DNA of 43,060 nt, taken from Synechococcus sp. (lineage in GTDB: Bacteria > Cyanobacteriota > Cyanobacteriia > Thermostichales > PCC-7336). The notes under the pieces were generated by a model. That model saw only the letters and a list, made by a program, of their open reading frames with translations. It made no database searches and was not told the DNA's origin. Both the position numbers and the translations under genes were made by a program. Within the stretch, counting starts at the first letter, position 1, and each line of letters begins with the position of its first letter. Shown in pieces: positions 13,339 to 34,862 of this stretch. The stretch covers positions 1 through 43,060 of the forward strand of contig JBFRWD010000117.1 in assembly GCA_051439425.1 (NCBI GenBank), written 5' to 3'.

Positions 13339-13367
13339 GATGGTTCATCCCGATAGATGCATGGGAA

Positions 13368-13411
13368 TCAACGACAGCGTTACTCGGTATAGAGAGCCGA
13401 TCCGTCGTTGA
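13368..13411. terminator. Stem-loop between convergent ruvB and DM13 genes
   Basis: Outer stem tcaacgac...gtcgttga with an inner tcgg/ccga stem. No U-tract. Confidence 0.4.
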
Positions 13412-13449
13412 GGCTGGGGGTTGGTCGAGACAGCTATCTGTCGGAGCAA

Positions 13450-20046: not shown

Positions 20047-21642
20047 ATGGTGCTACTTTCGCAAATGCGACAGTTTTCCCGCTCAGTAGCAGTAGCATTT
20101 GCACTTCTCCCCCTCAGTCTGTTGGGCTGTCGCTCGGAGTCTAAAACGATCGGACTTTCCACCGGATCGCCTACCGGCTATTACTATCGGCTAGGCCAGA
20201 CAATCGAAGCCTCTGTCGAAAACACGGTACGCATGGATGTTGATGTCCGACAATCCACAGGATCTTTAGATAACCTGCATCAACTTCTCAATGGCGAAAT
20301 CGATGTCGCCTTGGTTCAACTCGACGTTGCTGAAGAGAGCATGATAGCGGGTGACATTACAGCCATTGCAATCCTTGCCCAAGAGCATATTCACTTAATT
20401 AGTCGCCAGGCGAACAACTCGTCTGCCGAGACAACGACAACGAATGATAATGAACCAGCAACCCTGTCTGACCTTACCGGTCAAACCGTAGCAATTGGGC
20501 CTCCTGGCAGCGGCATTCGGTTCACTGCGAAGCAACTCCTCGATACTGCTCTATTGGATGAGACCGTTCAAGTCGATGAATCCGGTTTTAGCGAGGCATT
20601 AGATCTATTGAGCCAAGGACAGGTAGATGCTGCATTTTATGTGGGTCGCTTGGGTGCCAATGAACGTCTTCGGGAGGCCTTTGCTACCAATCCAGAACTG
20701 AAGTTACTCTCAATATCGCCTGGTTTAGCGAACTTTCTAGCCATTCAAAATCCTGGAGTCTATCGAACAGCAACAATACCTGAAGGTATCTACGGTGTGT
20801 TTCCAAGTCGACCCGAAGGAACGCTGACTAGTCTGACAACACCGACAGTGCTTGTCACTCGCCCCGACATCGAGCCCAGAACGGTTCGCTTAATTACTTG
20901 GTCAATTGTGGCAACAGCCCACCAATACGCATCGTTCTATCCCGAACTCCAATCAGGAGATCCGAACGATCTATTGCGCCAGGGATTATTTTTTGTCCAT
21001 CCAGGTGCCGTTGATGTTTATGAGTACGGCGATCCGCGTCAGGCCTGGGTTCGCTATTGGGAAAGCAACAGCGATCTTCAAGCTGGGATCTTTCTTCTCT
21101 TAGGGACGACCACCGCAGGCATGTTGTTGCAATATTGGCGCAAAATGCGTTCCCATCGCCTGGGCAATAAAATTCATCAGCGTACGATAGAAATCAATCA
21201 GCTGTTAAGCCAGTCCCCACAAGAAGCTCTGCGAGAGATTGAAGAACTCAGTCAAGATAATCGGTTTCAGTTTATTGCTGGCAAGATTCCTGACGAGGTT
21301 TACGTTCAACTTCAGCAAAAAACTCAAACCCTCAGCGACCAGTGTCGCTCGGTACTGGATCGCCAGCGCCGAGAACAAATTCTGAATACCCTTTTGTTGC
21401 TAGACGAATGGCAAGAGACTCTACAAACCGATCCATCTGCGGCCCTGAGCAAGCTCAGCCAAATTAAGCAACAGTACCGAGACATGCTGCTTTCCAATCA
21501 GGTCGATATCCAGGCCTATATGGAGTTGACGGAGCTAACGCTGATTTCGCTGATGACCCTAGCGCCAGAAAAGCGACTATACGCAGATCGGATACCGATG
21601 CTGTCTTCTGAAGATGTGCAATCACCATCCCCTCAGCAGTAG
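20047..21642 (+). CDS. TAXI-family solute-binding lipoprotein fused to a TM helix and a cytoplasmic helical domain
   Basis: Lipobox LLG-C; TAXI motifs STGSPTGYYY, STGSLDNL, AIGPPGSG and VHPGA; TM GIFLLLGTTTAGMLLQYW followed by RKMR. Confidence 0.88.
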   Translation: MVLLSQMRQFSRSVAVAFALLPLSLLGCRSESKTIGLSTGSPTGYYYRLGQTIEASVENTVRMDVDVRQSTGSLDNLHQLLNGEIDVALVQLDVAEESMIAGDITAIAILAQEHIHLISRQANNSSAETTTTNDNEPATLSDLTGQTVAIGPPGSGIRFTAKQLLDTALLDETVQVDESGFSEALDLLSQGQVDAAFYVGRLGANERLREAFATNPELKLLSISPGLANFLAIQNPGVYRTATIPEGIYGVFPSRPEGTLTSLTTPTVLVTRPDIEPRTVRLITWSIVATAHQYASFYPELQSGDPNDLLRQGLFFVHPGAVDVYEYGDPRQAWVRYWESNSDLQAGIFLLLGTTTAGMLLQYWRKMRSHRLGNKIHQRTIEINQLLSQSPQEALREIEELSQDNRFQFIAGKIPDEVYVQLQQKTQTLSDQCRSVLDRQRREQILNTLLLLDEWQETLQTDPSAALSKLSQIKQQYRDMLLSNQVDIQAYMELTELTLISLMTLAPEKRLYADRIPMLSSEDVQSPSPQQ

Positions 21643-21952
21643 TCCCTGTTATTCGAAACACATTGGCAAAGGCTCTCACCCCGCTATCCTTATTCTGCTC
21701 TTCATATCTTCAGAAGAGTGGGGGCCCTCAGGCCTGATGAAATATATCGTCATTGCATGATGTAGATTTTCGCAGTCTGCGACAGAGAGTCCCCTGACTA
21801 TTTAGGGGTTGAGTCGTCTCCAGACTCCAAACTCTAGAGTGGACTGCCATACCAGAAAGCACTATATTGCAAGACCGCCACGAATTCCTAATTCACCGAC
21901 TGAGTTTTCAGAACGGGCGATTGTTCGCTAGATAGAGACTAGAGACGTAGCA

Positions 21953-22657
21953 ATGCTCGCAACCATAGCCATCTTCTTTTTTGCCGCAATGCTACGCGCA
22001 ATATTTGGATTTGGGGATGCTCTAATCGCAATGCCCCTGTTGACCCTAACTTTGGGTATTGGCACCGCCACTCCTCTGTTTGCCCTAATCGCCACCAGTT
22101 CGGCACTGGCTATTTTTGCCACAACCTTTAAGCAGATTGACTTCAAAGCTTCCCGCCAACTGGTATTGTCAAGCATTCTGGGGATTCCCTTCGGCCTCAT
22201 CCTCATCAAACTTGTCCCCGAAGCGATCGTCATGAGGCTCTTGGGAATGTTTTTAATCGTCTTTGCCTTCAATCGCCTTATCCAAAAACAAGCTCCCCGC
22301 ATCAAAAGCCGCTGGTGGGGATATGGATTTGGGTTTGTGGCAGGCGTTCTGGGCAGCGCTTTTAACACCAACGGGCCACCCATCGTAACCTACGCTGCCT
22401 TGCGCCAATGGCCTCCCGATTCATTTCGCTCCAACCTGCAGGGGTACTTTTTCCCTGTTGGACTAATTATTGTGGCCAGTCACGGCATCTCGGGGTTATG
22501 GACTATGCAGGTGGGTCAGTTGTATTTGGCTTGCTTACCGGCAGCGCTGATGGCGATCGCGATCGGCAGCAAAATTCACCAATCACTCCCTCCAAAGAAA
22601 TTTGAAACCCTGCTGTCTCTTCTCCTCGTCATCTTCGGGATTGTTCTAATGATTTAG
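21953..22657 (+). CDS. TauE/SafE family (sulfite/organosulfonate) exporter
   Basis: GFGDALIAMPLL and GVLGSAFNTNGPP motifs; ~8 TM segments, 234 aa. Confidence 0.9.
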   Translation: MLATIAIFFFAAMLRAIFGFGDALIAMPLLTLTLGIGTATPLFALIATSSALAIFATTFKQIDFKASRQLVLSSILGIPFGLILIKLVPEAIVMRLLGMFLIVFAFNRLIQKQAPRIKSRWWGYGFGFVAGVLGSAFNTNGPPIVTYAALRQWPPDSFRSNLQGYFFPVGLIIVASHGISGLWTMQVGQLYLACLPAALMAIAIGSKIHQSLPPKKFETLLSLLLVIFGIVLMI

Positions 22658-22676
22658 CGATCGCCCGGAAAGATAC

Positions 22677-22717
22677 ATACAAGTCAGAGCTTTGTATATT
22701 TATCGAAAAACTTGATA
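22677..22717. promoter_or_regulatory. Adjacent inverted repeats upstream of the ABC operon (candidate LysR boxes)
   Basis: ATACAA-N9-TTGTAT (22677-22697) and TATC-N9-GATA (22701-22717). The second fits the LysR T-N11-A rule. Confidence 0.45.
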
Positions 22718-22889
22718 TCTTAGGCACCGAAATGAACTTGCTTCCCCCTCAGATCTACGTATAAATATTTTGTATCGCACCAAATACTAACGTGATAGTT
22801 AACCTGCACAATTGGTAGTCTTCATCACAAAGCCCTTAGAAGAATCCCGATTGAATTAGCTCAACTCTAACGGCTTTGAGAGACATATC

Positions 22890-24371
22890 ATGACTGCCAT
22901 TGGTTGCTCGAAGTGGACACAGGGGCTTGCCGCATCGCTGCTAATATTTGGTGCTTCAGCCCTCAGTGTTGATGCTGAAACCATCCGAATTTCAATCGGA
23001 ACGCAAGACCAGGTGATTAACACTGCAGTGGGCGGTGCCACCGTACGTGAACTGGAGTTACTCGAAAAGTACCTACCCACAGATGGCGAATACGAAGGGG
23101 TAGAGTACGACATTCAATGGTCCAGCTACACCTCCGGCCCGCCCATTACCAATAAAATGCTGGCCGACCAAATCGACATCGGCCTCATGGGGGATTTTCC
23201 TGCCGTAATCAATATGATTACGTTCCGTGAAGAAAGCGATGTTGAGACAACCTTTATCGGCACGCTTGCCTACAGTTCTAACGGCGCAGGGAATGCCGTC
23301 GTTGTACCGAGAACCAGCGACGCCAGCACCTTAGAAGATTTGCGCGGCGGAGTCGTCTCCGTTCCGTTTGGTTCGGCAGCCCACGGCATGCTGCTGAAGG
23401 CTCTCCAGGATGCAGGTATCGACCCCGAGAACGACCTCCGGCTCATCAGTCAGGCACCTGAGGTCGGGGGCACCAGCCTACGCACTGGCCAAATTGATGC
23501 GCACGCTGACTTTGTACCATTTGGCGAGCTGTTTCCCTTCCGAGGATTTGCTCGCAAGATCTTTGATGGCGCACAAACCGGCGTACCGACCTTACATGGC
23601 ATTGTGGTTCGGGATGATTTCGCAGAAGAGCACCCCGAAATTGTGGTGGCCTTCATGAAGGCGATGCTGGAAGCCAACCAAACATTCCGCGACACCCCAG
23701 AGGCTGTTTCCGCTCAAATTGAGGAATGGTCGGGCATCGACAAAGAAGTGGTCTACATGTTCCTCGGTCCTTCAGGCTTGCAACCCCTTGACCCCACCAT
23801 TCGCCCCGTTCATCTAGAAGCGCTGCAAAATAGCATTGCCACGCTCATTTCTCTGGGCAAAGTCGACCCTGAAATTAACCCAGAGGATGTCAATGGCTGG
23901 GTGGATGAAAGCTTCTTGCAAACCGCAATGGATGAGATGGGACTCGAGTACGATGCGGTTGTAGACGCCGGCGCTACTTATCAAATCGAAGGTAACGACG
24001 CCCTCACCGATGAACCCATTACTGACCCCACATTGGCGGCGCAGTTTTGGGTCCAAGGCGAAGATACAGTTACAAACTTCGCCACAATTGAGAACATGAT
24101 TGGCGGCTTGGATCAATTGCTAGATGAGGGCAAAGCAGCTGACGTCATGTTCGTTCACGATCGCGAAAATGGCTGGAAGCTATTTGCAGAAAATTCATAC
24201 TACGTCCAAGACGGAGAAGAGATTTCTGCCTTTCTCCTCAGAGAAGATGCAGAAGCGTTTGCAGCATCAACAGGGGGAGAAGTCACCGACTTTGGTGGGT
24301 TACAAGAAGCGCTAGCGGTAAGTAGCGATGTCGTAAACAGTGAGGTGGCCAGTATCAACTTGTCAAACTAA
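22890..24371 (+). CDS. ABC transporter substrate-binding protein, SsuA/TauA/NMT1-type, with a C-terminal NosL-like extension
   Basis: Sec signal peptide (VDA-ET); TSGPPITNKML...DIGLMGDFP and VPFGSAAHGML motifs; ~110 aa extra C-terminal domain. Confidence 0.92.
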   Translation: MTAIGCSKWTQGLAASLLIFGASALSVDAETIRISIGTQDQVINTAVGGATVRELELLEKYLPTDGEYEGVEYDIQWSSYTSGPPITNKMLADQIDIGLMGDFPAVINMITFREESDVETTFIGTLAYSSNGAGNAVVVPRTSDASTLEDLRGGVVSVPFGSAAHGMLLKALQDAGIDPENDLRLISQAPEVGGTSLRTGQIDAHADFVPFGELFPFRGFARKIFDGAQTGVPTLHGIVVRDDFAEEHPEIVVAFMKAMLEANQTFRDTPEAVSAQIEEWSGIDKEVVYMFLGPSGLQPLDPTIRPVHLEALQNSIATLISLGKVDPEINPEDVNGWVDESFLQTAMDEMGLEYDAVVDAGATYQIEGNDALTDEPITDPTLAAQFWVQGEDTVTNFATIENMIGGLDQLLDEGKAADVMFVHDRENGWKLFAENSYYVQDGEEISAFLLREDAEAFAASTGGEVTDFGGLQEALAVSSDVVNSEVASINLSN

Positions 24372-24377
24372 AACTCA

Positions 24378-24470
24378 CTACGAGGCTCTTGCCTCGTAGC
24401 CGCTACTACTGTTTGACGGAACTTAACTCGTTACTGTGCTTGAGTCAGCTGTTTGCATTCAGTTGACTCA
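24378..24470 (+). promoter_or_regulatory. Two intercistronic hairpins after the SBP gene
   Basis: ctacgaggc-tctt-gcctcgtag (perfect 9 bp, 24378-24399) and tgagtcagctg-N8-cagttgactca (11 bp, one G-U, 24441-24470). Confidence 0.65.
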
Positions 24471-24527
24471 TGCTTAATTAGATCCTCTTTTTATTTCACC
24501 CTGTAGTACTTACTCAAACACAGTGTT

Positions 24528-25388
24528 ATGGCATATTCCCGCACCCCTCCGGCAACGGCAGAATTATTGGAAAATATGCATCAGGGATATGTCAATCTCC
24601 GGTTCAATCTCTCCCGAAATTCTGCTGCGAGAAAGATTGCCTCTCTACTGCTATTTTTAGGGCTGTGGCAGTTATTTTGTGTCATTAATTTCAAGTTTCT
24701 GATTAACTTTCAATTTGTTCCCGCTCCTACTGAAGTTGTCACGGCTACCATTGAATTCTTCTCCTCAGGACCGCTCGTTCATTTCCGCTCTAGTATTTCT
24801 AGAGTGCTGATTGGGTTTGGGATTGCCGCTGTTTTAGGGATGATTTTAGGGATTGCGATTGGCACCTTCCAAAAAGTGGAAGACTTGTTGATGCCCGCTC
24901 TAGAAATTCTTCGTCCGATTCCCGCCGTTGCTTGGATTCCGCTGGCCATTCTCATGTTTCCCTCTGCCGAATCCGGCATGGTTTACATTACGTTTATTGG
25001 CGGTTTTTTCCCCATTTTAATTAGCACCATTCGCGGTGTGGAAAGCATGTTAGGAGATACTGTTCTGCTCCGGGTTGGGCAGTGTTTGGGAGCCAGGCCG
25101 TGGGATGTATTTAAAGACATTGTGGTGCCGGGAGCGTTACCCAGTATTGCGAGTGGTTTAGCGATCGGTATGGGTAATGCCTGGTTCTGTTTAGTTACGG
25201 CTGAAATTTTGGCCGGACGCTACGGCATTGGCTACATTACGTGGGAGTCGTACGTTACCTCAAACTTCCCGCCTATTGTGATGGGGATGCTGCTGATTGG
25301 ATTGATGGGGGCATTTAGTTCTTGGGCGATCGATCGCGTTATGTCGATGTTGATGCCTTGGCGGCGGTTGCAGAAGAAAGGGGTATAG
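24528..25388 (+). CDS. ABC transporter permease, SsuC/TauC/NrtB-type
   Basis: LRPIPAVAWIPLAIL, EAA-like loop GQCLGARPWDVFKDIVVPGALP, and LVTAEI. Confidence 0.95.
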   Translation: MAYSRTPPATAELLENMHQGYVNLRFNLSRNSAARKIASLLLFLGLWQLFCVINFKFLINFQFVPAPTEVVTATIEFFSSGPLVHFRSSISRVLIGFGIAAVLGMILGIAIGTFQKVEDLLMPALEILRPIPAVAWIPLAILMFPSAESGMVYITFIGGFFPILISTIRGVESMLGDTVLLRVGQCLGARPWDVFKDIVVPGALPSIASGLAIGMGNAWFCLVTAEILAGRYGIGYITWESYVTSNFPPIVMGMLLIGLMGAFSSWAIDRVMSMLMPWRRLQKKGV

Positions 25389-25394
25389 GGGTTG

Positions 25395-25488
25395 GGTCGT
25401 TGGTCATTAGTCACTGGTTATTTCGAGGAACAAAGGACTAAGGACTAAGGACTAAGGACTAAGGACTAAGGACAAATGACCAAGGACA
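25395..25488. repeat. Bipartite heptamer tandem repeat (STRR-like), copy 1
   Basis: ggtcgtt-ggtcatt-agtcact-ggttatt, a spacer, then (AAGGACT)x5 at 25433-25467 plus aaggaca-aatgacc-aaggaca. Confidence 0.9.
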
Positions 25489-25565
25489 AGACAAATCCAT
25501 TACAATTCCCATCAAGAATCTCACATCTAGAAAACCTCACATCACCAACCATTTCGAGAACCATC

Positions 25566-26399
25566 ATGCAGACTTCCCAGAAACCAACTGCTGTTTCTCC
25601 AATGCAATCTCAACACCGTAAAGGCTTCGTCGAGGTTGACGATCTGTCTGTATCGTTTCGCAGTCGAGATACGGTGCACGAAGTTCTGCATTCCGTTCGC
25701 TTCCGAGTCAACCCTGGTGAATTTGTTTGCTTGTTGGGACCTTCTGGGTGTGGAAAGTCGACGCTGTTAAATGCGATCGCTGGATTTGTCGCCCCCACCC
25801 AAGGGTCAGTGTCTGTGGATGGAAATCGCGTCACCCGTCCTGGCGCCGATCGAGGATTTGTATTTCAGCAATATTCGCTTCTGCCCTGGAAGACCACATT
25901 TCAGAATGTGGAAATGGGCTTGAAATACCAAAAGATGCCCAAGGGAGAGAGACGGGAGCTTGTCGATCGCTATCTCAATCGGGTGGGGTTATACAAACAT
26001 CGAAATTCCTATCCCCACCAGCTATCTGGAGGTATGCAGCAGCGGGCCAGCATTATCCGGGCGCTGGTCAATTCTCCTGCAGTGTTGTTGATGGACGAAC
26101 CCTTTGCCGCTCTAGATGCTCAAACTCGCCACATGATGCAGGAACTACTGCTGGATATTTGGGATGAGGACAAGACCACGATTGTATTTGTGACTCACGA
26201 TATTGAGGAAGCGGTATTTTTGGGCGACCGCATTCTCGTAATGGGCGTCAATCCAGGTCACATTAAGGAACAAATCAACATTCCCCTCCAGAGACCTCGC
26301 CATATTGACGACATGCTTACTCCTGAATTCACTCAGCTTAACCGCCAGGTATTTGACTTAATTCGGGAAGAAACTCTCAAGAGCATGGAAGTCGAATAG
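25566..26399 (+). CDS. ABC transporter ATP-binding protein, SsuB/TauB/NrtD-type
   Basis: GPSGCGKST, LSGGMQQR, LLMDEPF and VTHDIEEA motifs. ATG 25566 preferred because the upstream ATG at 25476 lies inside the repeat. Confidence 0.96.
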   Translation: MQTSQKPTAVSPMQSQHRKGFVEVDDLSVSFRSRDTVHEVLHSVRFRVNPGEFVCLLGPSGCGKSTLLNAIAGFVAPTQGSVSVDGNRVTRPGADRGFVFQQYSLLPWKTTFQNVEMGLKYQKMPKGERRELVDRYLNRVGLYKHRNSYPHQLSGGMQQRASIIRALVNSPAVLLMDEPFAALDAQTRHMMQELLLDIWDEDKTTIVFVTHDIEEAVFLGDRILVMGVNPGHIKEQINIPLQRPRHIDDMLTPEFTQLNRQVFDLIREETLKSMEVE

Positions 26400-26447
26400 A
26401 GACTTTAGGACCTCACACTACCTCACACTAATTTTGAGATTTTTAGG

Positions 26448-28478
26448 CTAGTTCTTGACAGCCGCCGTCATAAAATCAGCATCGATCCAGCGACCGAGAT
26501 TGAGACTGGCAAACTGGCAATCGTCAGTGGCAGATTGGTAGTGGTTAACATGTTCCACAATCCAGTCGGTACGGATCTGAGTATCGGGGAAGTACAGTCC
26601 TTGCGAATATTGGGTGGGACTGGTGCCCAATATACTATCGATAATACGTGGAGCACTGCGGGTCCATTGGCTTAATTTTTGGCTGGAATTCGGCACTGTT
26701 GCTTGCCAATGCTGAGCTGCCACTAATCCTTTTAAATAACTAACCACCAGATCGGGATGCTCGTCTGCAAATCCTTTGCGAGCCACCACACCATAAAATG
26801 CAGGCAAACCGCTGACATTGCCATCAAATAAATATCGGAACTGATTGCGCTCCAACGCTAATTCGTGAAATGGCGAAAAGTGGGCGTAGCCGGCTATTTC
26901 GCGATCGGACATGACAGCGCGATTCGCTCCATCCATCTTGCGAGCGTTCTCCACAGGAACTAGTTCCACATCTGACGACAATCCGTGCTGGTGCAGCACG
27001 CGCAGCACCATACCGTGCGCTGCCGAGCCGTTGGGAATCGCCAACGCCAGTCCTCGTAAATCGTCGATCTCGTTGACAACAGAATGCTGCGGTACGATCA
27101 CGGCATTTCGACATCCGTCGGGGTTAACCGCTACAAATCCAATCAGAATTGTTGAATCTTCCCCAGCACCCCGCTCCTGGTTGCGCTGAGCGCTCAATAG
27201 CATTGGATAATCCCCCAATATCCCCAGGTCGAGTTGGCCGCAGTGCAATCCATCCACTATGGGCATGCCGGTGGAATAATTTTGCCAGCGCACGTCAAAT
27301 TGAGACGACGCGTACCGTCCTGCTTTGGGTAGATAGTGGTTCAATAACCCCAATTTCTGCATCACAATGCCAGCTGATGCAGACGGAAGCGTTTGATTCT
27401 GCACGCCAATCCGAATGGGTAATGTCTCTGTTTTGTCGATCGTACGAATTGAGGTGGTGTGAGCTGGAGCATCCATCGCAGGTGCAGCACCTCTGAGACT
27501 TGATGCGCCTGTGAATGGGTCCGCTAGCTGACTGTCCCGAGCATTGCGATCCAACAACGTCAGCAGTTTCTGCACGGGGGTCTCGGATTGACTTCGCTTA
27601 CCTACCGAGCGTGCCGATGCCTGCAAACTGTCAAACGTGCGCGACGGGAGGGCCACAAATATAGGAGACGGCAGCGGGAATTCATGGATGGGAAGAGCAC
27701 GCAGTTGTGCAGCAGCAATCTCCGACTGGAAACATAAGGTGGAGGCAAACCCCAAATAGCCACCGGATTCGATGTACGCCTTCATGAGGGCTTCGGTTTC
27801 GGCTATTTCCACTGTCTCCAATTGCTCGATCGCCAGCCCGATATCGGCCAACCGTTGTGCGAACACAGACTGCGCAATGGAATCTTGGCGGTTCAACACC
27901 CATCGTTCCGCTGCCACTTCCGACAGACTGAGGCGATCGCGCATCGCCCAGGGGCTACTGGGTGCACAAATAACGGTGTATTGAATGGACGAAATTGGTT
28001 GAGAGTGGATCTCCTGAGAGTCGCTAAAACTAACTTCTGAAATTCCCAGGTCGGCTTCGGATGATGTCAGCGCGTGATAGATATCTTGGCTGATATTCAC
28101 AATCTTCAGATCGATCTCGATCTCGGGGTTCTGTTCTCGAAACTGAACTAATGGGTTGGCAATATACCCAGTAGCAATCGCCGAAGAGCAGGCAATTTTT
28201 AACACCCCCTTACATCCTTTTTTGTAAGTCTCTAGCTCTTGGTTCAGGGCAGCTTCACGTTCGACTAGATCCGTTGCCCCATCCAGTAAAAATTCACCCA
28301 TCTCGGTCAACTTGACCGTTCGACCCAGGCGATGAAATAAAGGGGCTCCAATGTCCGACTCTAATGACTTAATTTTTGCACTCACGGCTGGCTGGGTTAA
28401 GTTCATCGAGCGTGCCGCTTCAGTGAAACTGAGATATCGAGCCACCTGCAAAAAAACTTTTAGCTGGTAGATTTCCAT
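26448..28478 (-). CDS. LysR-family regulator fused to a C-terminal SsuA-like substrate-binding domain
   Basis: LysR HTH (LKVFLQVARYLSFTEAARSMNLTQPAVSAKIKSLE) and effector domain, a linker, then IRIGVQNQ...GILGDYP...IPNGSAAHGMVL, homologous to the SBP at 22890. Confidence 0.92.
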   Translation of the reverse strand: MEIYQLKVFLQVARYLSFTEAARSMNLTQPAVSAKIKSLESDIGAPLFHRLGRTVKLTEMGEFLLDGATDLVEREAALNQELETYKKGCKGVLKIACSSAIATGYIANPLVQFREQNPEIEIDLKIVNISQDIYHALTSSEADLGISEVSFSDSQEIHSQPISSIQYTVICAPSSPWAMRDRLSLSEVAAERWVLNRQDSIAQSVFAQRLADIGLAIEQLETVEIAETEALMKAYIESGGYLGFASTLCFQSEIAAAQLRALPIHEFPLPSPIFVALPSRTFDSLQASARSVGKRSQSETPVQKLLTLLDRNARDSQLADPFTGASSLRGAAPAMDAPAHTTSIRTIDKTETLPIRIGVQNQTLPSASAGIVMQKLGLLNHYLPKAGRYASSQFDVRWQNYSTGMPIVDGLHCGQLDLGILGDYPMLLSAQRNQERGAGEDSTILIGFVAVNPDGCRNAVIVPQHSVVNEIDDLRGLALAIPNGSAAHGMVLRVLHQHGLSSDVELVPVENARKMDGANRAVMSDREIAGYAHFSPFHELALERNQFRYLFDGNVSGLPAFYGVVARKGFADEHPDLVVSYLKGLVAAQHWQATVPNSSQKLSQWTRSAPRIIDSILGTSPTQYSQGLYFPDTQIRTDWIVEHVNHYQSATDDCQFASLNLGRWIDADFMTAAVKN

Positions 28479-28493
28479 CAATGAGCCCTACAG

Positions 28494-28594
28494 ATAGAAT
28501 TGATTTATGGATGGATTTCAGGTCGCGATAAGAGAGCTATTCTAAGGACGAAAAGACCGATCTAAACTAATACAAACGTAAATTTCGAAATTTA
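28494..28594. promoter_or_regulatory. Divergent promoter region: LysR-type box and a perfect 16-bp palindrome
   Basis: ATA-N9-TAT (T-N11-A) at 28494-28508; TAAATTTCGAAATTTA at 28579-28594. Confidence 0.5.
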
Positions 28595-28713
28595 GTTCCC
28601 TAGCGATCGCCGGACAAATTTTCAGCAGCATTGCTACAGCGGTATAGGGATTCGCTTGGTGTATCCGAGCGAACATTCGACTGGACCTTTATAGCCCCTT
28701 TTCTCTGGGAGAA

Positions 28714-30459
28714 ATGTTTATGGTGAGCACGTTTACGGCAGGTACGCATACGGCGGGTACCCAGAGATTGCAAACCGATGTGCTGGTCGTTGGAGGCGGT
28801 ACAGCCGGAACAATGGCTGCTATCAAGGCGAAGCAAGCCAATCCCGAGGCCGACGTGCTAGTTCTGGAGAAGGCTAACATCCGTCGTAGCGGCGCGATCG
28901 CTATGGGCATGGACGGTGTGAACACCGCAGTTATTCCCGGAAATTCCACGCCCGAACAGTACGTCCGCGAGATCACCATTGCCAACGACGGTATTCTCAA
29001 CCAGGAAGTGGTGTATCAGACGGGCAAGCTGGGCTACGAAGTTATCCAGGAATTGGATAGTTGGGGGGTAAAGTTTCAGAAGGACGCCTACGGTAATTAC
29101 GATCTCAAACAAGTGCATCGTGTGGGTAAATATGTACTCCCGATGCCGGAGGGCAAAGACCTCAAGAAGATTTTGACCCGTGAGGTCAAGCGTCACAAAG
29201 CTAAAGTTATCAACCGAGTTATGGCCACCCGGGTGATTGTTAGCGATGGGCGAGCCACTGGGGTAACGGGCTTTGATGTTCGCAATGGCGATTTTGTCAT
29301 TATTCAAGCCAAAGCCGTCATTCTTTCCACCGGAGCTTGTGGACGATTGGGTCTCCCTCAATCGGGCTACCTCTACGGCACCTACGAAAATCCCACTAAC
29401 GCCGGTGATGGCTATGCCATGGCCTACCATGCTGGGGCCGAGCTCAGCAATATTGAATGCTTCCAAATTAATCCGCTGATTAAGGACTACAACGGGCCGG
29501 CTTGCGCCTATGTCGCCGGCCCCTTTGGTGCCTATACCGCTAATGCTGAAGGGAATCGCTTCGTCAGCTGCGATTACTGGAGCGGCCAGATGATGCTGGA
29601 GATCTATAAGGAACTCCATTCCGGACGCGGCCCCATCAGCCTCAAGCTGAATCACTTGGACGAGGACACCATTTCCGAGATCGAAGAGATTCTCTGGGCC
29701 AACGAGCGGCCCAGTCGCGAACGCTTCCACGAAGGTCGTGGCGAGAATTATCGCACCCACGGCGTCGAGATGGAAATTTCCGAAATTGGTCTCTGCAGCG
29801 GTCACAGTGCTTCGGGGGTACGTGTCGATGCTAAGGCTGCAACTACAGTTCCCGGTCTGTACGCGGCGGGAGATATGGCCTCCGTCCCCCACAACTACAT
29901 GATTGGAGCCTTTGTCTTCGGTCGCATTGCCGGAACCAACGCGATTGAATACTGTCGCGAGCTTCCACATGTAGAGCCCGACCCCGATTTCATTGCGGCA
30001 GAGATGGAGCGTATCTACCGTCCTCTCAAGCAGCCGGAGGGAGTGCCCCACACCCAGGTGGAATACAAGCTGCGTCGGTTTGTGAATGACTATCTCCAGC
30101 CCCCCAAGAACACCCACAAGATGGAGATTGCTTTAGACAAGTTCGTGAATTACTATTCCACTCTCGATTTGATGGGGGCTCGCGATCCGCACGAGCTGAT
30201 GCGCTGCATGGAAGTGCATGCCATTCGTGACTGTGCAGAGATGGCGGCTCGCGCCTCTTTGTTCCGCAAAGAGAGTCGCTGGGGTCTGTACCACTATCGA
30301 GTGGATTACCCCGAGAAGAACAACGACGAGTGGTTCTGCCACACCCATCTCAAAAAGGACGAGTCGGGGGAAATGACGATCGCCAAAGCCCCGATCGAAT
30401 CCTACGTAGTGGATGTGGATCTGGAGAGTGAAACCTACGACGTCGCGATTAATGCCTGA
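28714..30459 (+). CDS. FAD-dependent oxidoreductase of the SdhA/FrdA/AprA family, APS-reductase-alpha-like
   Basis: DVLVVGGGTAG FAD motif, RSGAIAMGMDGVN (cf. AprA RSGAVAQGLSAIN), NAGDGYAMAYHAGA, GLYAAGD, RKESRWGLYHYRVDYP. No SdhA-type flavinylation His motif (SHT). Confidence 0.9.
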   Translation: MFMVSTFTAGTHTAGTQRLQTDVLVVGGGTAGTMAAIKAKQANPEADVLVLEKANIRRSGAIAMGMDGVNTAVIPGNSTPEQYVREITIANDGILNQEVVYQTGKLGYEVIQELDSWGVKFQKDAYGNYDLKQVHRVGKYVLPMPEGKDLKKILTREVKRHKAKVINRVMATRVIVSDGRATGVTGFDVRNGDFVIIQAKAVILSTGACGRLGLPQSGYLYGTYENPTNAGDGYAMAYHAGAELSNIECFQINPLIKDYNGPACAYVAGPFGAYTANAEGNRFVSCDYWSGQMMLEIYKELHSGRGPISLKLNHLDEDTISEIEEILWANERPSRERFHEGRGENYRTHGVEMEISEIGLCSGHSASGVRVDAKAATTVPGLYAAGDMASVPHNYMIGAFVFGRIAGTNAIEYCRELPHVEPDPDFIAAEMERIYRPLKQPEGVPHTQVEYKLRRFVNDYLQPPKNTHKMEIALDKFVNYYSTLDLMGARDPHELMRCMEVHAIRDCAEMAARASLFRKESRWGLYHYRVDYPEKNNDEWFCHTHLKKDESGEMTIAKAPIESYVVDVDLESETYDVAINA

Positions 30460-30649
30460 TGCTTTCTCAGGCTCACTGTCCTGCTAAATCTTCGGGCTTA
30501 CTGCCTGTGCAACTGCTTGCAAGTTATCGCCTTTCAGTAAGCCTGGTAGATTATGTAGCGACTGATTGACTGAAACTCAGTAACCCACTTGTTGGTTCAA
30601 AACACGATCACCCAACCCCAATCGTTTTAAAACTGGAGCTCCCTTCCGA

Positions 30650-30877
30650 ATGGCCTTAACTTCTCAACGTGTCGATGTCCCCGTCATTGTGGACGAGTCC
30701 AAATGTCTGGAAAAATGTACCGCCTGCATTGAAGTCTGTCCATTAGACGTACTGGTCAAAAATCCCGAAACCGGCAAAGCCTATATGAAGTATGACGAAT
30801 GCTGGTTTTGCTTGCCCTGCGAAAAGGAATGCCCAGTGGATGCGATTACCGTGCAGATCCCGTTTTTGTTGAGGTGA
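30650..30877 (+). CDS. 2x[4Fe-4S] ferredoxin, AprB-like small subunit
   Basis: CLEKCTACIEVCP and CWFCLPCEKECP; CW-x-C pattern as in AprB. Confidence 0.93.
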   Translation: MALTSQRVDVPVIVDESKCLEKCTACIEVCPLDVLVKNPETGKAYMKYDECWFCLPCEKECPVDAITVQIPFLLR

Positions 30878-30883
30878 TGGGAT

Positions 30884-30999
30884 AGTCCTTGATCCCTGGT
30901 CTTTGGTCCTTAGTCCTTCGTCCATGGCAAAGAACAAGCGAGTTCCTACCAATGACCAGTGACTAATGACTACTGACTACTGACGAGTGACTAGTAACC
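30884..30999. repeat. Bipartite heptamer tandem repeat (STRR-like), copy 2, inverted relative to copy 1
   Basis: agtcctt-gatccct-ggtcttt-ggtcctt-agtcctt-cgtccat, a spacer, then aatgacc-agtgact-aatgact-actgact-actgacg-agtgact-agtaacc. Confidence 0.85.
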
Positions 31000-31060
31000 A
31001 ATCCCCAACCCTCAAACCCACCACTTCTCCCAGCCAACCCCACTCAGGACACCCCCCAAC

Positions 31061-32023
31061 ATGGATAGCGAACTACAACAATGGGTCGAGATGTTGCAGT
31101 CAGAAGATGTTGGCGATCGCCTCGTTGCCGTTAAGATGCTGCAGCACGAGGGGGATGAAGAGGCTCTGGAGCCACTGATTGGAGCATTACCTGACGAGAA
31201 TCCAGGGGTGCAAAAACTGGCAATTACCACACTGTGGGAGATGGCGAACCACCAGGCGGTACGTCCGCTGATTCCCTGCTTGGGGTCGCCGCACGAAGAG
31301 GTGCGAACCGAAGCGCTCGGGGCTTTGAAAGAACTAGTCATTCCCGACGATTTACTGTTGCTGCTGGATGCTCTGCATCAAGAAGACATTAATATGCAGC
31401 TCAATATTTTGGTGCTGCTGCGCAAGATTCACGACGTGCAAGCCTTGCCGTATATCCTGCCGTATTTTGAATCCGACAACGAAGAGTTACGAGAAGCTGC
31501 GATAACGACACTGCGATACCTCAATCAGGTCACCAGCTGTGCTCCGGCCCTCGCACTGATGAGCGATCCATCTCCAGTCGTTCGTCGAGAAGCGGCATTG
31601 ACCATTGGCTACTTACAGGATGACGAGGTGGTCGATTTGCTCAATCAAGCACTGACAGATGAAGACTGGCAAGTCAGGCGCAATGCCGCCCAATCAATTG
31701 CCATCCTCAAGCCTCAAGCCTCCATTCCTCCACTGAGCGAAGCCATGACGGACGAGCACTGGCAGGTGCGTAAGTTTGTGGCTCGGGCGTTGCAGCAGGT
31801 GCCGGACGACAGTGCGATTCCCGTCCTGGTTGCTGCGTTAGCTGACGAGTATTCAGATGTAAGGCGAGATGCGGCGATCGCATTGGGAAATATTGGCAAT
31901 CCATCCGTGATCAATTCCCTCAAACAGACTCTCGACGATCCGGACGCGGACGTGCGGATTTTCTCGCAGCGGGCGATCGACGCCATCGAGGGGGCACAGG
32001 CAGCAGAGGTATCCAATGGTTGA
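31061..32023 (+). CDS. HEAT-repeat (PBS lyase-like) protein
   Basis: About 10 repeats of ~31 aa (L-x-D-E-D/H-W-Q-V-R-x-x-A-A-x-x-L). Overlaps the mrp start by 8 bp. Confidence 0.92.
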   Translation: MDSELQQWVEMLQSEDVGDRLVAVKMLQHEGDEEALEPLIGALPDENPGVQKLAITTLWEMANHQAVRPLIPCLGSPHEEVRTEALGALKELVIPDDLLLLLDALHQEDINMQLNILVLLRKIHDVQALPYILPYFESDNEELREAAITTLRYLNQVTSCAPALALMSDPSPVVRREAALTIGYLQDDEVVDLLNQALTDEDWQVRRNAAQSIAILKPQASIPPLSEAMTDEHWQVRKFVARALQQVPDDSAIPVLVAALADEYSDVRRDAAIALGNIGNPSVINSLKQTLDDPDADVRIFSQRAIDAIEGAQAAEVSNG

Positions 32024-33134
32024 ACACTCATCCCCCATTCAAGTACAACAGCCTCCTTCCAAGCAGGAACAGGCTACTGATGACAAAGTTCTCATGCAAG
32101 AACGAGAGGCGATCGCTGCCCTTAAGACGGTCATCGAGCCCAATTTAGGCAAAGACATTGTCAGTTTGGGCATGGTTCGCAACCTGCGCATTGTTGATGA
32201 TTACGTATCCGTCCGTCTCTATATCGGAGCCCACCAGACTGACATAGAAGAACAAGTACTGCAGAAACTAAACGACCTACCGTGGAGCAAGAAGGGTTAC
32301 GTGCAGCGATGCTCGATTCCAGGTGTGCGGACTACGATCGCGGTGTCCAGTGGTAAAGGAGGGGTTGGTAAATCCACCACTGCTGTCAACCTGGCAGCTG
32401 CGCTGAGCATGCAAGGGGCAAAAGTAGGGGTACTGGATGCGGATGTATACGGGCCTAACGTTCCGCATATGTTGGGGTTGGGGCATGCAGATGTCGAGGT
32501 ATTTGAAACTCCTAACGGTCAGCGATTTCGCCCACTAGAAGCACATGGAATTAAAGTGATGTCGGTGGGGCTGCTGGCAGAACCAGACCATCCGTTGGCG
32601 TGGCGCGGGCCAGTATTGCACAAAATCGTGACCCAGTTTATTCACGACGTGGAATGGGGAGAGCTGGATTATCTGCTGATCGATTTACCTCCCGGCACCG
32701 GAGATGCCCAAATCACCATCGTTCAGGAAAGTCCCATTTGTGGCGTAGTTCTCGTGACAACACCCCAGCAGGTGGCATTGTCTGATGTGCGCCGCAGCAT
32801 CCACATGTTCCGCAATGTTGGGGTGCCAGTGTTGGGAATTGTGGAAAACATGAGCTATCTAAAACAAGATAATGGCGATCGCCTCTTTGTTTTTGGGGCT
32901 GGTGGTGGCGAGCAATTGTCTAAGGAACTCAATGCTCCATTGATGGGACAAGTTCCCTTGGAACCCAATATTTGTAGCCAAGGGGACCGAGGGAAACCGA
33001 TTCCTCTAATTGATAACCAGTCCGATATTTCCCTAGTGTTTGGACAAATCGCCTGCGAGTTAATTCGTATCTTTGGCATGAATGACGAAGGAGAAAATGT
33101 CGAAATCGACAATCAGGCTCTGAGTTTAGCTTAA
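32016..33134 (+). CDS. mrp: Mrp/NBP35/ApbC family Fe-S cluster carrier ATPase with an N-terminal DUF59-like domain
   Basis: SGKGGVGKST deviant Walker A, LDADVYGPN, WRGP, IDLPPGTGDAQ, VTTPQ and GIVENMS motifs. Confidence 0.93.
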   Translation: MVEHSSPIQVQQPPSKQEQATDDKVLMQEREAIAALKTVIEPNLGKDIVSLGMVRNLRIVDDYVSVRLYIGAHQTDIEEQVLQKLNDLPWSKKGYVQRCSIPGVRTTIAVSSGKGGVGKSTTAVNLAAALSMQGAKVGVLDADVYGPNVPHMLGLGHADVEVFETPNGQRFRPLEAHGIKVMSVGLLAEPDHPLAWRGPVLHKIVTQFIHDVEWGELDYLLIDLPPGTGDAQITIVQESPICGVVLVTTPQQVALSDVRRSIHMFRNVGVPVLGIVENMSYLKQDNGDRLFVFGAGGGEQLSKELNAPLMGQVPLEPNICSQGDRGKPIPLIDNQSDISLVFGQIACELIRIFGMNDEGENVEIDNQALSLA

Positions 33135-33355
33135 TGTCGAAAAATATATGTATTCGACAGCCACCACTGATAAATAGTAACGACTATAAGTTCGCTTGTC
33201 CGTGAATTTGATGTCTTCTGATATTGGATTTCTATCCACTTGTTAGCTCAAAAGATATTTTTCGTTGGCTTGGTTTTCCTGCTCGCAATGACATACACAC
33301 TCTTATGGTGAGACTGTCTCCCTAAGAATCATTTTTTTCTTTGGAAGAGAGATAC

Positions 33356-34348
33356 ATGCACAAGATCGATCGATGGTTATATGGGGTGTATTTGTGCGTG
33401 GCAATCGCAGTCATCTCAAAACTTCTGTCGTTCTATCTTCCGCTTGGGTCGGTAGCTATAGCCTTGATTTTGGGAATCGTTGTTGGAAATAGTGTTGCTA
33501 TAGGAGAAGGTTTAAAACCTGGAATTATGTTCAGTGAGAAAGTCCTGCTTTCCCTGGCAATCGCATTGATGGGAGTCAATCTTGACTACTTTGTATTGCG
33601 AGAGCTGGGAGGGCGAACAATTTTCTTGATTATTTTAGCCATAGGGTTATCGACTTCCTTTACTGTATATATTGCCAGAATAATGGGAGTGAAACCCACC
33701 CAGGCGTTACTGATTGGAATTGGGAATGGAATTTGCGGAAGCTCGGCAATTGCGGCAACCAATCACATCATCAAGGCGAAGGAAGAAGATGTAGGCATTG
33801 CGATCGCAATCGTCAATTTCCTTGGGACGATTGGGATGCTTTCTCTGCCAATCCTGGCAAAGATTATTCTTGGGTTTACCGATATTCAGGTGGGTATCTT
33901 GATCGGAAACACCCTTCAAGCGGTGGGTCAAGCTGCTGCTGGTGGCTTCTCTGTCAGCGACACTGCCGGTCAAACGGCAATCATTGTCAAAATGGGTAGA
34001 GTCATGATGCTTTCCCCATTTTTACTCATTCTGTTTGTAAGCCTTTCGAGTAAAGGGCTGCCAGAGTTGAGAGGAGAAGCAGATATGCGAAAGCAACAAA
34101 TCCCTTTATTTATTTTTGGATTTATTTTTTTCTCGCTGCTTTCTACTTTTAATATTATCTCTCAAACGTATATTGAGTTTCTGAGTGTTGTGGGCAATAT
34201 TCTTCTACTGGTTGCCATGTCGGGAATTGCTCTTAAAATCAATATATTTTCCATTCTTAAGAATGGCAGAAAAGTCCTGATGTTGGGGTGCTTCACATTC
34301 ATTGTTCAAATACTATTCAGCACATCTCTGATCCAACTGATGTATTAA
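33356..34348 (+). CDS. YeiH / putative sulfate exporter (PSE, UPF0324) family membrane protein
   Basis: GNGICGSSAIAA, IGNTLQAVGQ and IVKMGRV motifs; ~10 TM segments; visibly more AT-rich than its neighbours. Confidence 0.9.
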   Translation: MHKIDRWLYGVYLCVAIAVISKLLSFYLPLGSVAIALILGIVVGNSVAIGEGLKPGIMFSEKVLLSLAIALMGVNLDYFVLRELGGRTIFLIILAIGLSTSFTVYIARIMGVKPTQALLIGIGNGICGSSAIAATNHIIKAKEEDVGIAIAIVNFLGTIGMLSLPILAKIILGFTDIQVGILIGNTLQAVGQAAAGGFSVSDTAGQTAIIVKMGRVMMLSPFLLILFVSLSSKGLPELRGEADMRKQQIPLFIFGFIFFSLLSTFNIISQTYIEFLSVVGNILLLVAMSGIALKINIFSILKNGRKVLMLGCFTFIVQILFSTSLIQLMY

Positions 34349-34499
34349 GTTCTAAACGAGCGATTGTTCATGATGAATGAGTCTCTGCTCAATCGCTCTG
34401 ATTCTTTCATGGCCGAAAAGATGTGTGTGTTTGACAGGATAGGGCTAGTCAGGGGCAGATCGCTTGTTGGGTAAGGGCTTGACCTACTCAGTTTTATGA

Positions 34500-34784
34500 A
34501 TGGGGTGCGATGGCGATCGTGAAGGGGATGTGCTGAGGGTGGCCAGCAGCTCGCGGCTTGCGGATGAGTTGAACGCTCCGCTGCGGGGCAAAATGCTGCT
34601 CGATCCACGCATTTGTCAGCAGGGGGATACCGAGCGATCTCTACTATTTCCGGACACAACGGCAGAGATTTCACCCATGTTTTCTCAGTTTGTCCGTGGA
34701 CCGATCTCTAGATTTAACGTTGCGAACAGTATCGATCCCCAATCCACTACTGAAGACGGTATAGCCCTATTAGTGGTCTGGTAA
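34500..34784 (+). pseudogene. Decayed duplicate of the 3' end of the mrp gene
   Basis: RLADELNAPLRGKMLLDPRICQQGD...EISPMFSQ aligns with Mrp QLSKELNAPLMGQVPLEPNICSQGD...DISLVFGQ. No ATPase motifs are present. Confidence 0.8.
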
Positions 34785-34862
34785 TCCCGAGAGATGGGAA
34801 TTTGAATGCATTCGGCCAGAATTTTTCGCTACCAAACTTGTTCGCGACCAAACTCGTCCCCA

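Follow-up and report, generated by a model that had tools for sequence, protein, structure and literature searches.

The closest described relatives of the enzyme treated here are enzymes of the adenosine 5′-phosphosulfate (APS) reductase type. In the dissimilatory enzyme AprAB, represented by the structures from Archaeoglobus fulgidus (PDB entries 1jnr and 2fja) and Desulfovibrio gigas (3gyx), four residues of the flavoprotein AprA, Asn-A74, Trp-A234, Arg-A265 as well as His-A398, are described as invariant and as polarising the sulfate. The asparagine and the histidine contact the sulfate or sulfite oxygens, Arg-A265 also touches the phosphate, and the channel for adenosine monophosphate (AMP) is shaped by Tyr-A95, Trp-A144, Val-A273, Gly-A274, Phe-A277, Leu-A278 and Arg-A317 (all according to PMC2211403). 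Tail-less AprAB-like proteins occur in Clostridia, Negativicutes, Deltaproteobacteria, Nitrospira and Archaeoglobi, and an assimilatory role has been proposed for them (PMC8477390). One AprAB-like member, from Methanothermococcus thermolithotrophicus, has been solved (8a8o) and shown to be a reductase of 3′-phosphoadenosine 5′-phosphosulfate (PAPS) (PMC10322725). Here we describe a gene pair encoding an alpha flavoprotein and a beta ferredoxin in a 43,060-nucleotide stretch of contig JBFRWD010000117.1 from Synechococcus sp. (assembly GCA_051439425.1), hereafter called the window. The enzyme belongs to a separate, uncharacterised clade with APS-reductase architecture (PRK08275, or PRK13800 if fused). 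In sequence and in predicted fold, the nearest matches of its flavoprotein are AprA and the Methanothermococcus PAPS reductase, an AprA-type enzyme, and not SdhA or FrdA.

Both open reading frames (ORFs) called in the initial annotation are present, at precisely the positions it gave (Table 1). They are real genes, chance ORFs being ruled out by conservation and family score; the database copies of the flavoprotein start two residues downstream and contain 579 amino acids (aa). The motifs quoted in that annotation are found in the translations: RSGAIAMGMDGVN spans residues 58–70 of the flavoprotein and ESRWGLYHYR residues 520–529, and CWFC occupies residues 51–54 of the ferredoxin. The AprA motif ERSGAVAQGLSAIN is seen in the alignment with the A. 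fulgidus protein. Gly60 of the flavoprotein stands at the position of the flavinylated histidine of SdhA, and this glycine is kept in all 55 rows of our flavoprotein alignment.

The best PDB sequence match of the flavoprotein is 8a8o_A, the alpha subunit of the PAPS reductase, aligned over its full length with 239 bits (E = 7e-70). A. fulgidus AprA scores 157 bits and D. gigas AprA 109, while the SdhA, FrdA and NadB structures remain at about 80 bits or lower. An AlphaFold model, for which 55 sequences were used as input, has a mean predicted local distance difference score (pLDDT) of 92.5 and a predicted template modelling score of 0.93. In Foldseek comparisons, the best superposition of this model is onto 8a8o_A, with template modelling (TM) scores of 0.88/0.92 and an r.m.s.d. 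of 2.1 Å. The superposition onto AprA that had been suggested, made here with the alpha model alone, gives TM-scores of 0.90/0.81 for the A. fulgidus protein (2fja_A) and 0.86/0.76 for the D. gigas protein (3gyx_A); E. coli FrdA reaches 0.82. The model and its TM-scores show the AprA-type arrangement of FAD-binding, capping and helical domains. A quick maximum-likelihood tree of the 55 rows, with an arbitrary root, recovers the window clade as a single group (SH-aLRT support 100). Together with the relatives of 38–43% identity, among which it nests, it makes up 16 rows with a support of 99; the eight AprA-like rows form a group of their own (support 100), and a further 31 unnamed flavoproteins also stand apart.

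The databases name the protein differently. The flavoprotein has 120 homologues among the matches listed, at least 81% identical throughout; the closest named relatives among these matches are cyanobacterial metagenome-assembled genomes (MAGs, 96–98%) and Synechococcus sp. PCC 7336 (95%), in line with the cyanobacterial origin of the window. Where the 120 homologues are named, the name is always succinate dehydrogenase/fumarate reductase (Sdh/Frd) flavoprotein, a variant of this, or "putative oxidoreductase", so the mis-annotation that had been predicted is real. The Pfam domains, FAD_binding_2 and Succ_DH_flav_C, are shared with the Sdh/Frd flavoproteins, which belong to the same superfamily. 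The curated NCBIfam models separate them: the flavoprotein reaches 996 bits on NF006131 (PRK08275; cut-off 587) and aligns with the first 565 positions of the 898-position model NF010374 (PRK13800), the HEAT-fused form of the same family. The AprA-type models score below their cut-offs, NF005331 (PRK06854.1-2) with 318.8 bits against 557 and TIGR02061 (aprA) with 188.7 against 641.75. The Sdh/Frd models do not exceed 170 bits or so, the best reaching 170.5 against a cut-off of 826 and 157.9 against 567.3, and the L-aspartate oxidase (NadB) model TIGR00551 scores 125.1 against 452.75. The AprA-type proteins are thus nearer than SdhA and FrdA in the PDB, NCBIfam and Foldseek comparisons alike, as the initial annotation had it; one outcome it named as fatal to its proposal, a plain fumarate reductase or L-aspartate oxidase, is disfavoured by scores so far under the curated cut-offs. 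The family itself is not new, since curated hidden Markov models (HMMs) exist for it; it is its name that is wrong.

The ferredoxin contains eight cysteines, at positions 19, 23, 26, 30, 51, 54, 57 and 61. None of them varies among the 24 orthologues aligned, and Trp52 is likewise found in all 24. This agrees with the two-cluster partner carrying an AprB-type tryptophan that had been recognised, and not with a three-cluster SdhB. Its PDB matches include D. gigas AprB (3gyx_B, 43 bits), 8a8o_C (33 bits) and A. fulgidus AprB (1jnr_B, 32 bits); polyferredoxins match equally well or better, FwdF with 63 bits, and the aprB model TIGR02060 scores 35 bits against a cut-off of 135.65. With 75 aa, compared to 150 in 1jnr_B, 166 in 3gyx_B and 104 in 8a8o_C, the protein terminates where the AprB tail would start, and the long carboxy-terminal tail is indeed absent. 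Membrane anchors are also missing, as had been noted: the NCBIfam scan of the 29 proteins of the window reveals no SdhC/D-, QmoC- or AprM-type gene, and the membrane proteins near the pair are transporters only (an ABC permease, a TauE/SafE-family and a YeiH-family protein). In a Ralstonia MAG (locus L075, 10007–11986, plus strand), flavoprotein and ferredoxin are contained in one 659-aa ORF, either a genuine fusion or an artefact of assembly; Ralstonia wenshanensis has two distinct genes there, spaced two bases apart.

The active site was analysed by mapping residues by hand from HMMER alignments, with the 55-row alignment as an independent check; the pocket residues are inferred from these alignments, not from model geometry, and Arg-A317 falls in an unaligned stretch. 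Asn-A74, His-A398 (via 8a8o) and His-A446 of AprA correspond to Asn70, His364 and His393 of the flavoprotein. Trp-A234 is replaced by Tyr224 and Arg-A265 by Leu255. Around the nucleotide, Tyr-A95, Glu-A141 and Trp-A144 have become Glu86, Val137 and Tyr140, Val-A273 and Gly-A274 are Ala263 and Cys264, Phe-A277 is Val267 and Leu-A278 is Ala268, so that the nucleotide contacts that can be mapped are replaced and the divergent substrate pocket that had been proposed is borne out.

These differences are consistent within the groups. Asn70 and His364 are retained in 10 of 10 window-clade rows and in all six rows of the 38–43% relatives. The window-clade rows (10/10) contain Tyr-Glu and Leu where the AprA-like rows (8/8) have Trp-Tyr and Arg, and the latter keep the Asn, Trp, Arg and His in all eight cases; the three of them that were scanned (P0152, P0163 and P0167) are genuine PRK06854.1-2 "adenylyl-sulfate reductase alpha" proteins with 674–805 bits. 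In the six 38–43% relatives, the Trp-A234 column holds Tyr or Phe and the Arg-A265 column Met, Glu, Leu or Cys. Lys120, Arg121 and Ser122, proposed to bind the 3′-phosphate of PAPS in the Methanothermococcus enzyme (Jespersen et al., PMC10322725), align to Lys139, Tyr140 and Val141 after a five-residue insertion, and the triad is not preserved; the Lys139 position is a serine in P0121 and P0122. All 10 window-clade rows carry Arg211, Arg332, Arg454 and His527, where the AprA-like rows have Gly, a variable residue, Gln and Gln, respectively; they are candidates for a new anion site. Judged from these residues, the flavoprotein is not an APS or PAPS reductase.

When compared with the Methanothermococcus PAPS reductase (8a8o; PMC10322725), the alpha subunit is alignable over its full length, and both enzymes are soluble and without a Qmo or AprM partner. 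Both have a short two-cluster beta subunit lacking the long AprB tail, with a tryptophan beside a cluster cysteine, and both are proposed to be assimilatory. However, the identity is only about 29–35%, the clade is a different one and the score stays below the PRK06854.1-2 cut-off. The window enzyme lacks Arg-A265, the Trp-Tyr pair and the 3′-phosphate residues and comes with an additional HEAT subunit and an importer of its own; sat, cysC and asr are not among its neighbouring genes, and the hosts are aerobic. Dissimilatory AprAB shares the three-domain flavoprotein fold, the RSGA..G...N segment with Asn-A74, His-A398, His-A446, the carboxy-terminal ESRW..Y.YR segment and the CW.C of the beta subunit. 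Compared with it, the window alpha subunit is 60–80 aa shorter, the beta subunit has 75 instead of 150–166 aa, Arg-A265, Trp-A234 and the mappable AMP-binding residues are missing, there is no Sat, QmoABC or AprM, and the predicted substrate is not a nucleotide. Relative to the AprAB-like class, the novelty of the clade lies in its active site, its HEAT partner, its importer and regulator and its aerobic hosts.

The analysis adds to the initial annotation a third component with HEAT repeats, an importer operon and a ligand-sensing regulator (Table 1). The HEAT-repeat protein matches the carboxy-terminal part, positions 611–896, of the fusion model PRK13800 and is likely a third subunit; the start of the gene for the Mrp-type protein overlaps the end of the HEAT gene. 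The TauE/SafE gene is located directly upstream of the importer genes, and the YeiH-family protein carries the NCBI name "putative sulfate export transporter". The regulator is transcribed divergently. Its carboxy-terminal part is 34% identical to the importer binding protein over 274 aa (E = 3e-54), a fusion that recurs in Prochlorococcus, Pseudanabaena and Leptolyngbya loci (L001, L004 and Leptolyngbya). A regulator with a copy of the transporter binding domain implies cytoplasmic sensing of the transported ligand. No Rfam family, and no riboswitch, was matched in a scan of the whole window; a promoter and terminator scan of positions 21500–34800 gave 10/18 sites, compared to 13.9/13.8 in shuffled sequences, and is uninformative.

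Table 1. Features of the operon in the window
Feature	Position	Strand	Size, family or score
TauE/SafE-family (TSUP) membrane protein, sulfite-exporter family	21953..22657	+	Pfam PF01925, 96 bits, E 3e-27
SsuA/TauA-like ABC substrate-binding protein	22890..24371	+	NCBIfam SsuA_fam 116 bits, TauA 87; PDB/Foldseek
ABC permease, NitT/TauT type	24528..25388	+	Pfam BPD_transp_1; TauC, SsuC, NtrB below cut-offs
ABC ATPase	25476..26399	+	Pfam ABC_tran 117 bits; taurine, nitrate, SaoA models below cut-offs
Regulator: LysR helix-turn-helix, effector domain and SsuA-like binding domain	26448..28481	-	Pfam HTH_1, LysR_substrate, NMT1_2
Alpha subunit, FAD flavoprotein, AprA/PAPS-reductase fold	28714..30459	+	581 aa; NCBIfam NF006131 (PRK08275)
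Beta subunit, 2x[4Fe-4S] ferredoxin, CWFC, without AprB tail	30650..30877	+	75 aa; Pfam Fer4_7, Fer4
HEAT-repeat (PBS-lyase type) protein	31061..32023	+	Pfam HEAT_2, 174 bits
Mrp/ApbC-type Fe-S carrier ATPase (DUF59 + NBP35)	32016..33134	+	Pfam ParA/NUBPL 306 bits, FeS_assembly_P
YeiH-family membrane protein	33341..34348	+	Pfam PF03601, 228 bits; TIGR00698 146 against cut-off 232.6

The binding protein of the importer resembles those for sulfonates. Its four best PDB sequence matches are TauA and SsuA proteins, and the seven best Foldseek matches of its model (pLDDT 88.9) are all TauA or SsuA chains. In Nostoc (locus L005), a canonical SsuA, with 310 bits against a cut-off of 299, is encoded immediately upstream of the flavoprotein gene. 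The window protein ends in an alpha/beta domain of about 130 aa (window positions 24012–24371, residues ~375–493) that is absent from TauA and SsuA (~300 aa). Trp387 in this extra domain is invariant in 22 of 22 orthologues; a likeness of the domain to NosL (Pfam E = 9e-4, below the cut-off; atlas score 0.85) is weak and may serve as a lead only.

The conservation of the locus was assessed in a scan for relatives with one genome per species, in which 200 were confirmed; the best 80 loci were retained and neighbours within 6 kb were considered. Seven of these loci are cyanobacterial, one of them from a Prochlorococcus single-cell genome, 17 are proteobacterial, one is from Verrucomicrobiota and 55 are actinobacterial. 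The family is not peculiar to phototrophs; aerobic bacteria from soils and waters carry it widely. Of the 80 loci, 74 have a ferredoxin close to the flavoprotein gene and 77 a HEAT protein; in 52, all actinobacterial, the HEAT and flavoprotein parts are in the same ORF, as in P0121, a fusion of 925 aa that scores 1585 bits on PRK13800. Binding-protein homologues scoring 100 bits or more in the same 6-kb range are found in 66 loci, and permease and ATPase likewise in 66 each. Where at least 6 kb is available on both sides, the full core is present in 52 of 63 loci. The 11 exceptions include Nostocales and Microcoleus, which carry the canonical SsuA directly upstream instead, and some Burkholderiaceae, in which a nearby importer is missing.

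The accessory genes vary with the taxon. Mrp lies within 6 kb in 6 of the 80 loci, all cyanobacterial (6 of the 7 cyanobacterial loci). After the HEAT gene, 11 loci, all proteobacterial, encode a DUF971 (gamma-butyrobetaine-hydroxylase-N-like) protein of about 95 aa; they include L066, L072, L077 and L078, and annotated copies are found in L081 (15090–15371) and L086 (9879–10172). Cyanobacterial Mrp/ApbC thus stands at the place held by DUF971 in proteobacteria. The plant protein HCF101 joins DUF59, Mrp and DUF971, and from this architecture both accessories would presumably be iron-sulfur delivery factors. Regulators of the LysR-binding-domain fusion type accompany the window-type cyanobacterial loci, with GntR/UTRA proteins elsewhere; the GntR neighbour cluster comprises 28 loci, and it is the only cluster used from a neighbour clustering that is blurred by spurious antisense ORFs in high-GC loci. 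TauE/SafE homologues are found in L001 and, weakly, in L067, and one is annotated in the plasmid cluster of Leptolyngbya BL0902; YeiH homologues occur in L001, in L004 (Prochlorococcus), in two actinobacterial loci (L009 and L030) and on the Leptolyngbya plasmid.

The flavoprotein gene is also carried by plasmids or chromids, in 58 records at E = 1e-50 or better, from rhizobia, Paraburkholderia, Methylocystis, Acidithiobacillus, Acinetobacter baumannii and four cyanobacterial plasmids, which suits an accessory, mobile trait. No Synechococcus elongatus record is among the matches listed (60 of 68 plasmid records). Between the flavoprotein and ferredoxin genes, Nostoc L005 has PdxJ-like, HAD hydrolase, S-adenosylmethionine methyltransferase and GNAT genes (11712–14530), and N. 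edaphicum (L083, 11638–14819) two HAD hydrolases, a methyltransferase, a GNAT and a VOC protein; these inserted genes may process a desulfonated product. Before the operon of Prochlorococcus L004 (15–3327), there are a taurine-type binding protein (198 bits, below the cut-off), an extra ABC ATPase and an allophanate-hydrolase-like amidase (NF006043, 520 bits against a cut-off of 487), which may form a second nutrient-scavenging module.

The flanks of 13 lower-GC or proteobacterial loci (90 ORFs, all outside the 55 actinobacterial loci) were scanned with Pfam, and sulfur-type neighbours are present in seven of the 13, a count that has no matched random-locus control. L002 contains a luciferase-like monooxygenase, an acyl-CoA-dehydrogenase type 2 gene and an NMT1 binding protein, and L006 another luciferase-like monooxygenase; L003 and L006 have a Cys/Met pyridoxal-phosphate enzyme with a MetX-like hydrolase. 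In Cupriavidus necator (L069, 6075–8832) and Paraburkholderia solitsugae (L078, 14953–17950), an SrpI-like type-2A encapsulin and a long cysteine desulfurase adjoin the operon, the latter locus also containing TauD and two luciferase-like monooxygenases. P. sediminicola (L073, 13366–15435) has a cysteine desulfurase with rhodanese, with a Na/sulfate symporter and a luciferase-like monooxygenase as further neighbours, and L080 a sulfotransferase. The SrpI encapsulin family is reported to respond to sulfur starvation (PMC8049743), and its presence with the desulfurase beside the operon suggests a shared sulfur-starvation island. Annotated neighbours in Cupriavidus pinatubonensis are an NtaA/DmoA monooxygenase, an acyl-CoA-dehydrogenase-family protein and an SsuA-family binding protein, and in Nostoc edaphicum metX, O-acetylhomoserine sulfhydrylase and a pair of sulfonate-binding proteins. 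The window operon has TauE/SafE and YeiH genes at its side, as do those of L001 and of the Leptolyngbya plasmid.

Organised in this way, the locus resembles SsuEADCB and TauABCD, which scavenge organosulfur with the help of oxygen: a self-contained operon with an SsuA/TauA-like importer and one redox enzyme, often located beside ssuD-, tauD- or sfn-like genes. The redox enzyme of those systems is a luciferase-like monooxygenase or a 2-oxoglutarate dioxygenase; here it is an iron-sulfur flavoprotein with the AprA fold, and oxygen is no obvious co-substrate. The binding protein also has an extra carboxy-terminal domain, and the operon its own ligand-sensing regulator.

The fold, the family placement, the residue pattern, the conserved gene partnership and the sulfur-related neighbourhoods are the observations on which we base a proposal that we consider evenly balanced between right and wrong: a soluble, cytoplasmic three-part enzyme would reductively cleave an imported sulfonated compound, X-SO3(-), to sulfite via a flavin-N5 adduct. 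The characterised proteins nearest to the enzyme form or consume sulfite at this N5. The compound would be taken up by the SsuA/TauA-like ABC importer and would induce the operon via the regulator carrying a copy of the importer binding domain. Electrons would pass from a cellular donor over the two clusters and Trp52 of the beta subunit to the FAD, the N5 of the reduced flavin would attack the sulfur, as in AprA (mechanism as given in PMC2211403), with Asn70 and His364 holding the sulfo group, and X would depart. The flavin-N5-sulfite adduct would then decay to sulfite, which would be assimilated, any surplus being exported by the two membrane proteins of anion-exporter type. The loss of Arg-A265 and of the nucleotide channel fits a non-nucleotide leaving group; in view of the missing Arg-A265 and the missing nucleotide contacts, as far as these can be mapped, X should be neither AMP nor 3′-phosphoadenosine 5′-phosphate (PAP). 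It could be an alkoxide (from a sulfate ester), a thiolate (from a thiosulfonate or S-sulfo compound), an amide (from a sulfamate) or a stabilised carbanion (from an activated sulfonate). Mrp would be an iron-sulfur carrier supplied by the operon, and the HEAT subunit, in what is pure inference, could dock or stabilise, replacing the missing AprB tail; the contacts between subunits are deduced from homology, gene order, the 52 flavoprotein–HEAT fusions and one alpha–beta fusion. Wider in scope, and rather doubtful, is the suggestion that this is the first recognised member of a widespread group of oxygen-independent, ferredoxin-driven "sulfo-group reductases". Built from an AprA-like flavoprotein, a mini-AprB and a HEAT subunit, these would release sulfite straight from an imported sulfonate, sulfate ester or S-/N-sulfo compound by flavin-N5 chemistry and without ATP activation, which would open a new entry to sulfur assimilation for cyanobacteria (some Prochlorococcus among them), actinobacteria, rhizobia and Burkholderia.

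Several points weigh against reductive sulfo-group cleavage. Two of the four invariant sulfate-polarising residues of AprA are altered (Arg-A265 to Leu255 and Trp-A234 to Tyr224), and because of this N5-sulfur chemistry is not assured. The importer binding protein scores below its cut-offs (SsuA_fam 116 bits against 163.5, TauA 87 against 304), and, as the Foldseek matches indicate, the same family takes nitrate, bicarbonate, pyrimidines and pyrroloquinoline quinone (PQQ). Mesorhizobium and Ralstonia records lack an SsuA-like importer, Ralstonia adjoining a sugar-type ABC system; 5 of the 13 scanned loci (L064, L066, L071, L075 and L077) have no sulfur-related neighbour, and in L001 the sulfur link is only via its TauE and YeiH genes. 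Outside the cyanobacteria the regulators are of the GntR/UTRA, HutC/PhnF kind, typical of catabolic operons and not of a CysB/SsuR sulfur regulon. The hosts are aerobes that already own oxygen-dependent desulfonation enzymes, the analysis points to no electron donor, and our literature search found no experiment on any family member.

Some of these points would suit an oxidative dehydrogenase with a sulfonated organic acid as its substrate, the highest-rated of the rival explanations although unlikely in our estimate. Such an enzyme would take a hydride from the imported organic acid or sulfonate, like SdhA, NadB or TcuA, and pass electrons out via the ferredoxin; sulfite would be released by later or spontaneous steps, the link to sulfur coming from the substrate and not from N5-sulfur chemistry. 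Membership of the fumarate reductase superfamily (FAD_binding_2, Succ_DH_flav_C), the missing Arg-A265 and Trp-A234, aerobic hosts and substrate-sensing GntR/UTRA and LysR regulators typical for catabolic operons all fit it, and Arg211, Arg332 and Arg454, which all 10 window-clade rows share and which are largely missing in the AprA-like rows, could accommodate an organic anion as substrate. It has to account, however, for nearest relatives that in all measures are sulfite-forming AprA-type enzymes and for the retained Asn and His that contact sulfate and sulfite in AprA, and neither a hydratase, lyase or aldolase conserved with the core nor an electron acceptor or membrane anchor encoded in the operon comes to its aid. 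A sulfur-free nutrient, such as a phosphonate, a nitro compound, a carboxylate or another nitrogen, phosphorus or carbon compound, with sulfur neighbours by coincidence, is improbable. The ligands of the binding-protein family do include nitrate and bicarbonate, pyrimidines and PQQ, as well as 2-aminoethylphosphonate (TauA entry 6ssy), Pfam gives a weak match to Phosphonate-bd (25.9 bits), the GntR regulators are like PhnF, PhnR and HutC, the A. baumannii binding protein is named "nitrate ABC transporter substrate-binding protein" by the annotation pipeline PGAP, and the sulfur neighbours are missing in 5 of 13 scanned loci. Yet the top seven structural and top four sequence matches of the binding protein are sulfonate-binding proteins, sulfur-type neighbours recur across unrelated phyla, phn genes and genes of nitrate or urea assimilation are not conserved along with the core, and the nearest relatives of the enzyme use hexavalent sulfur, S(VI).

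If the enzyme were really an AprAB-type reductase of APS or PAPS with an assimilatory role, like that of Methanothermococcus, this would be in keeping with the best solved relative, the short beta subunit common to both and the role in sulfur assimilation proposed for the AprAB-like proteins of anaerobes (PMC8477390). The active site makes this identity very improbable: Leu in place of Arg-A265 and Tyr in place of Trp-A234, compared to Trp-Tyr and Arg in 8 of 8 PRK06854-type rows, Glu, Val, Ala/Cys and Ala in place of Tyr-A95, Glu-A141, Val273/Gly274 and Leu-A278, and Tyr and Val facing the PAPS-specific Arg121 and Ser122. Both AprA models are missed by a wide margin (319 against 557 and 189 against 642 bits), the clade is separate from the AprA-like rows in the tree, an NCBIfam scan of all 29 proteins that the 43-kb window supplied shows no sat, cysC or qmo gene, and a dedicated importer would be senseless for an intracellular nucleotide. 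The identity that the databases give, a succinate dehydrogenase/fumarate reductase flavoprotein or an L-aspartate oxidase, can hardly be credited. Beyond the names themselves and the two Pfam domains it has little to draw on: the scores lie far under the cut-offs (for example 170 against 826, 158 against 567 and 125 against 453 bits), AprA-type structures are nearer than FrdA or SdhA, the partner has two clusters instead of three and is not SdhB-like, anchor genes are absent, and the position of the flavinylated histidine of SdhA is occupied by Gly60.

Thousands of genomes carry the gene as "succinate dehydrogenase/fumarate reductase flavoprotein", which distorts metabolic reconstructions, for example of the cyanobacterial tricarboxylic acid cycle. 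If reductive cleavage of the sulfo group is the true function, abundant phototrophs and soil bacteria would possess an unrecognised path by which dissolved organosulfur yields sulfite, with a flavin-N5 chemistry so far known only for APS and PAPS. In full-text literature, with most subscription journals outside the search, we found no study of the PRK08275/PRK13800 family, of an AprA-like enzyme with a HEAT partner or of a cyanobacterial one; a term search of a Gordonia sulfur-source transcriptome (PMC7661421) found no mention of such a gene. The system is directly testable because importer, sensor domain and enzyme should share one ligand, and the binding protein or the regulator domain could thus serve to find the substrate.

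Two further genes lie ahead of the operon in the window. An ORF on the minus strand (18526–18999) encodes a single-domain globin of 157 aa without a reductase part; it matches positions 3–146 of the 399-position model for nitric oxide-inducible flavohaemoprotein with 171 bits, below the cut-off. Directly upstream of the TauE gene, on the plus strand (20047–21642), a 531-aa solute-binding protein of the TAXI/NMT1_3 type is encoded, which is about 200 aa longer than the family model.

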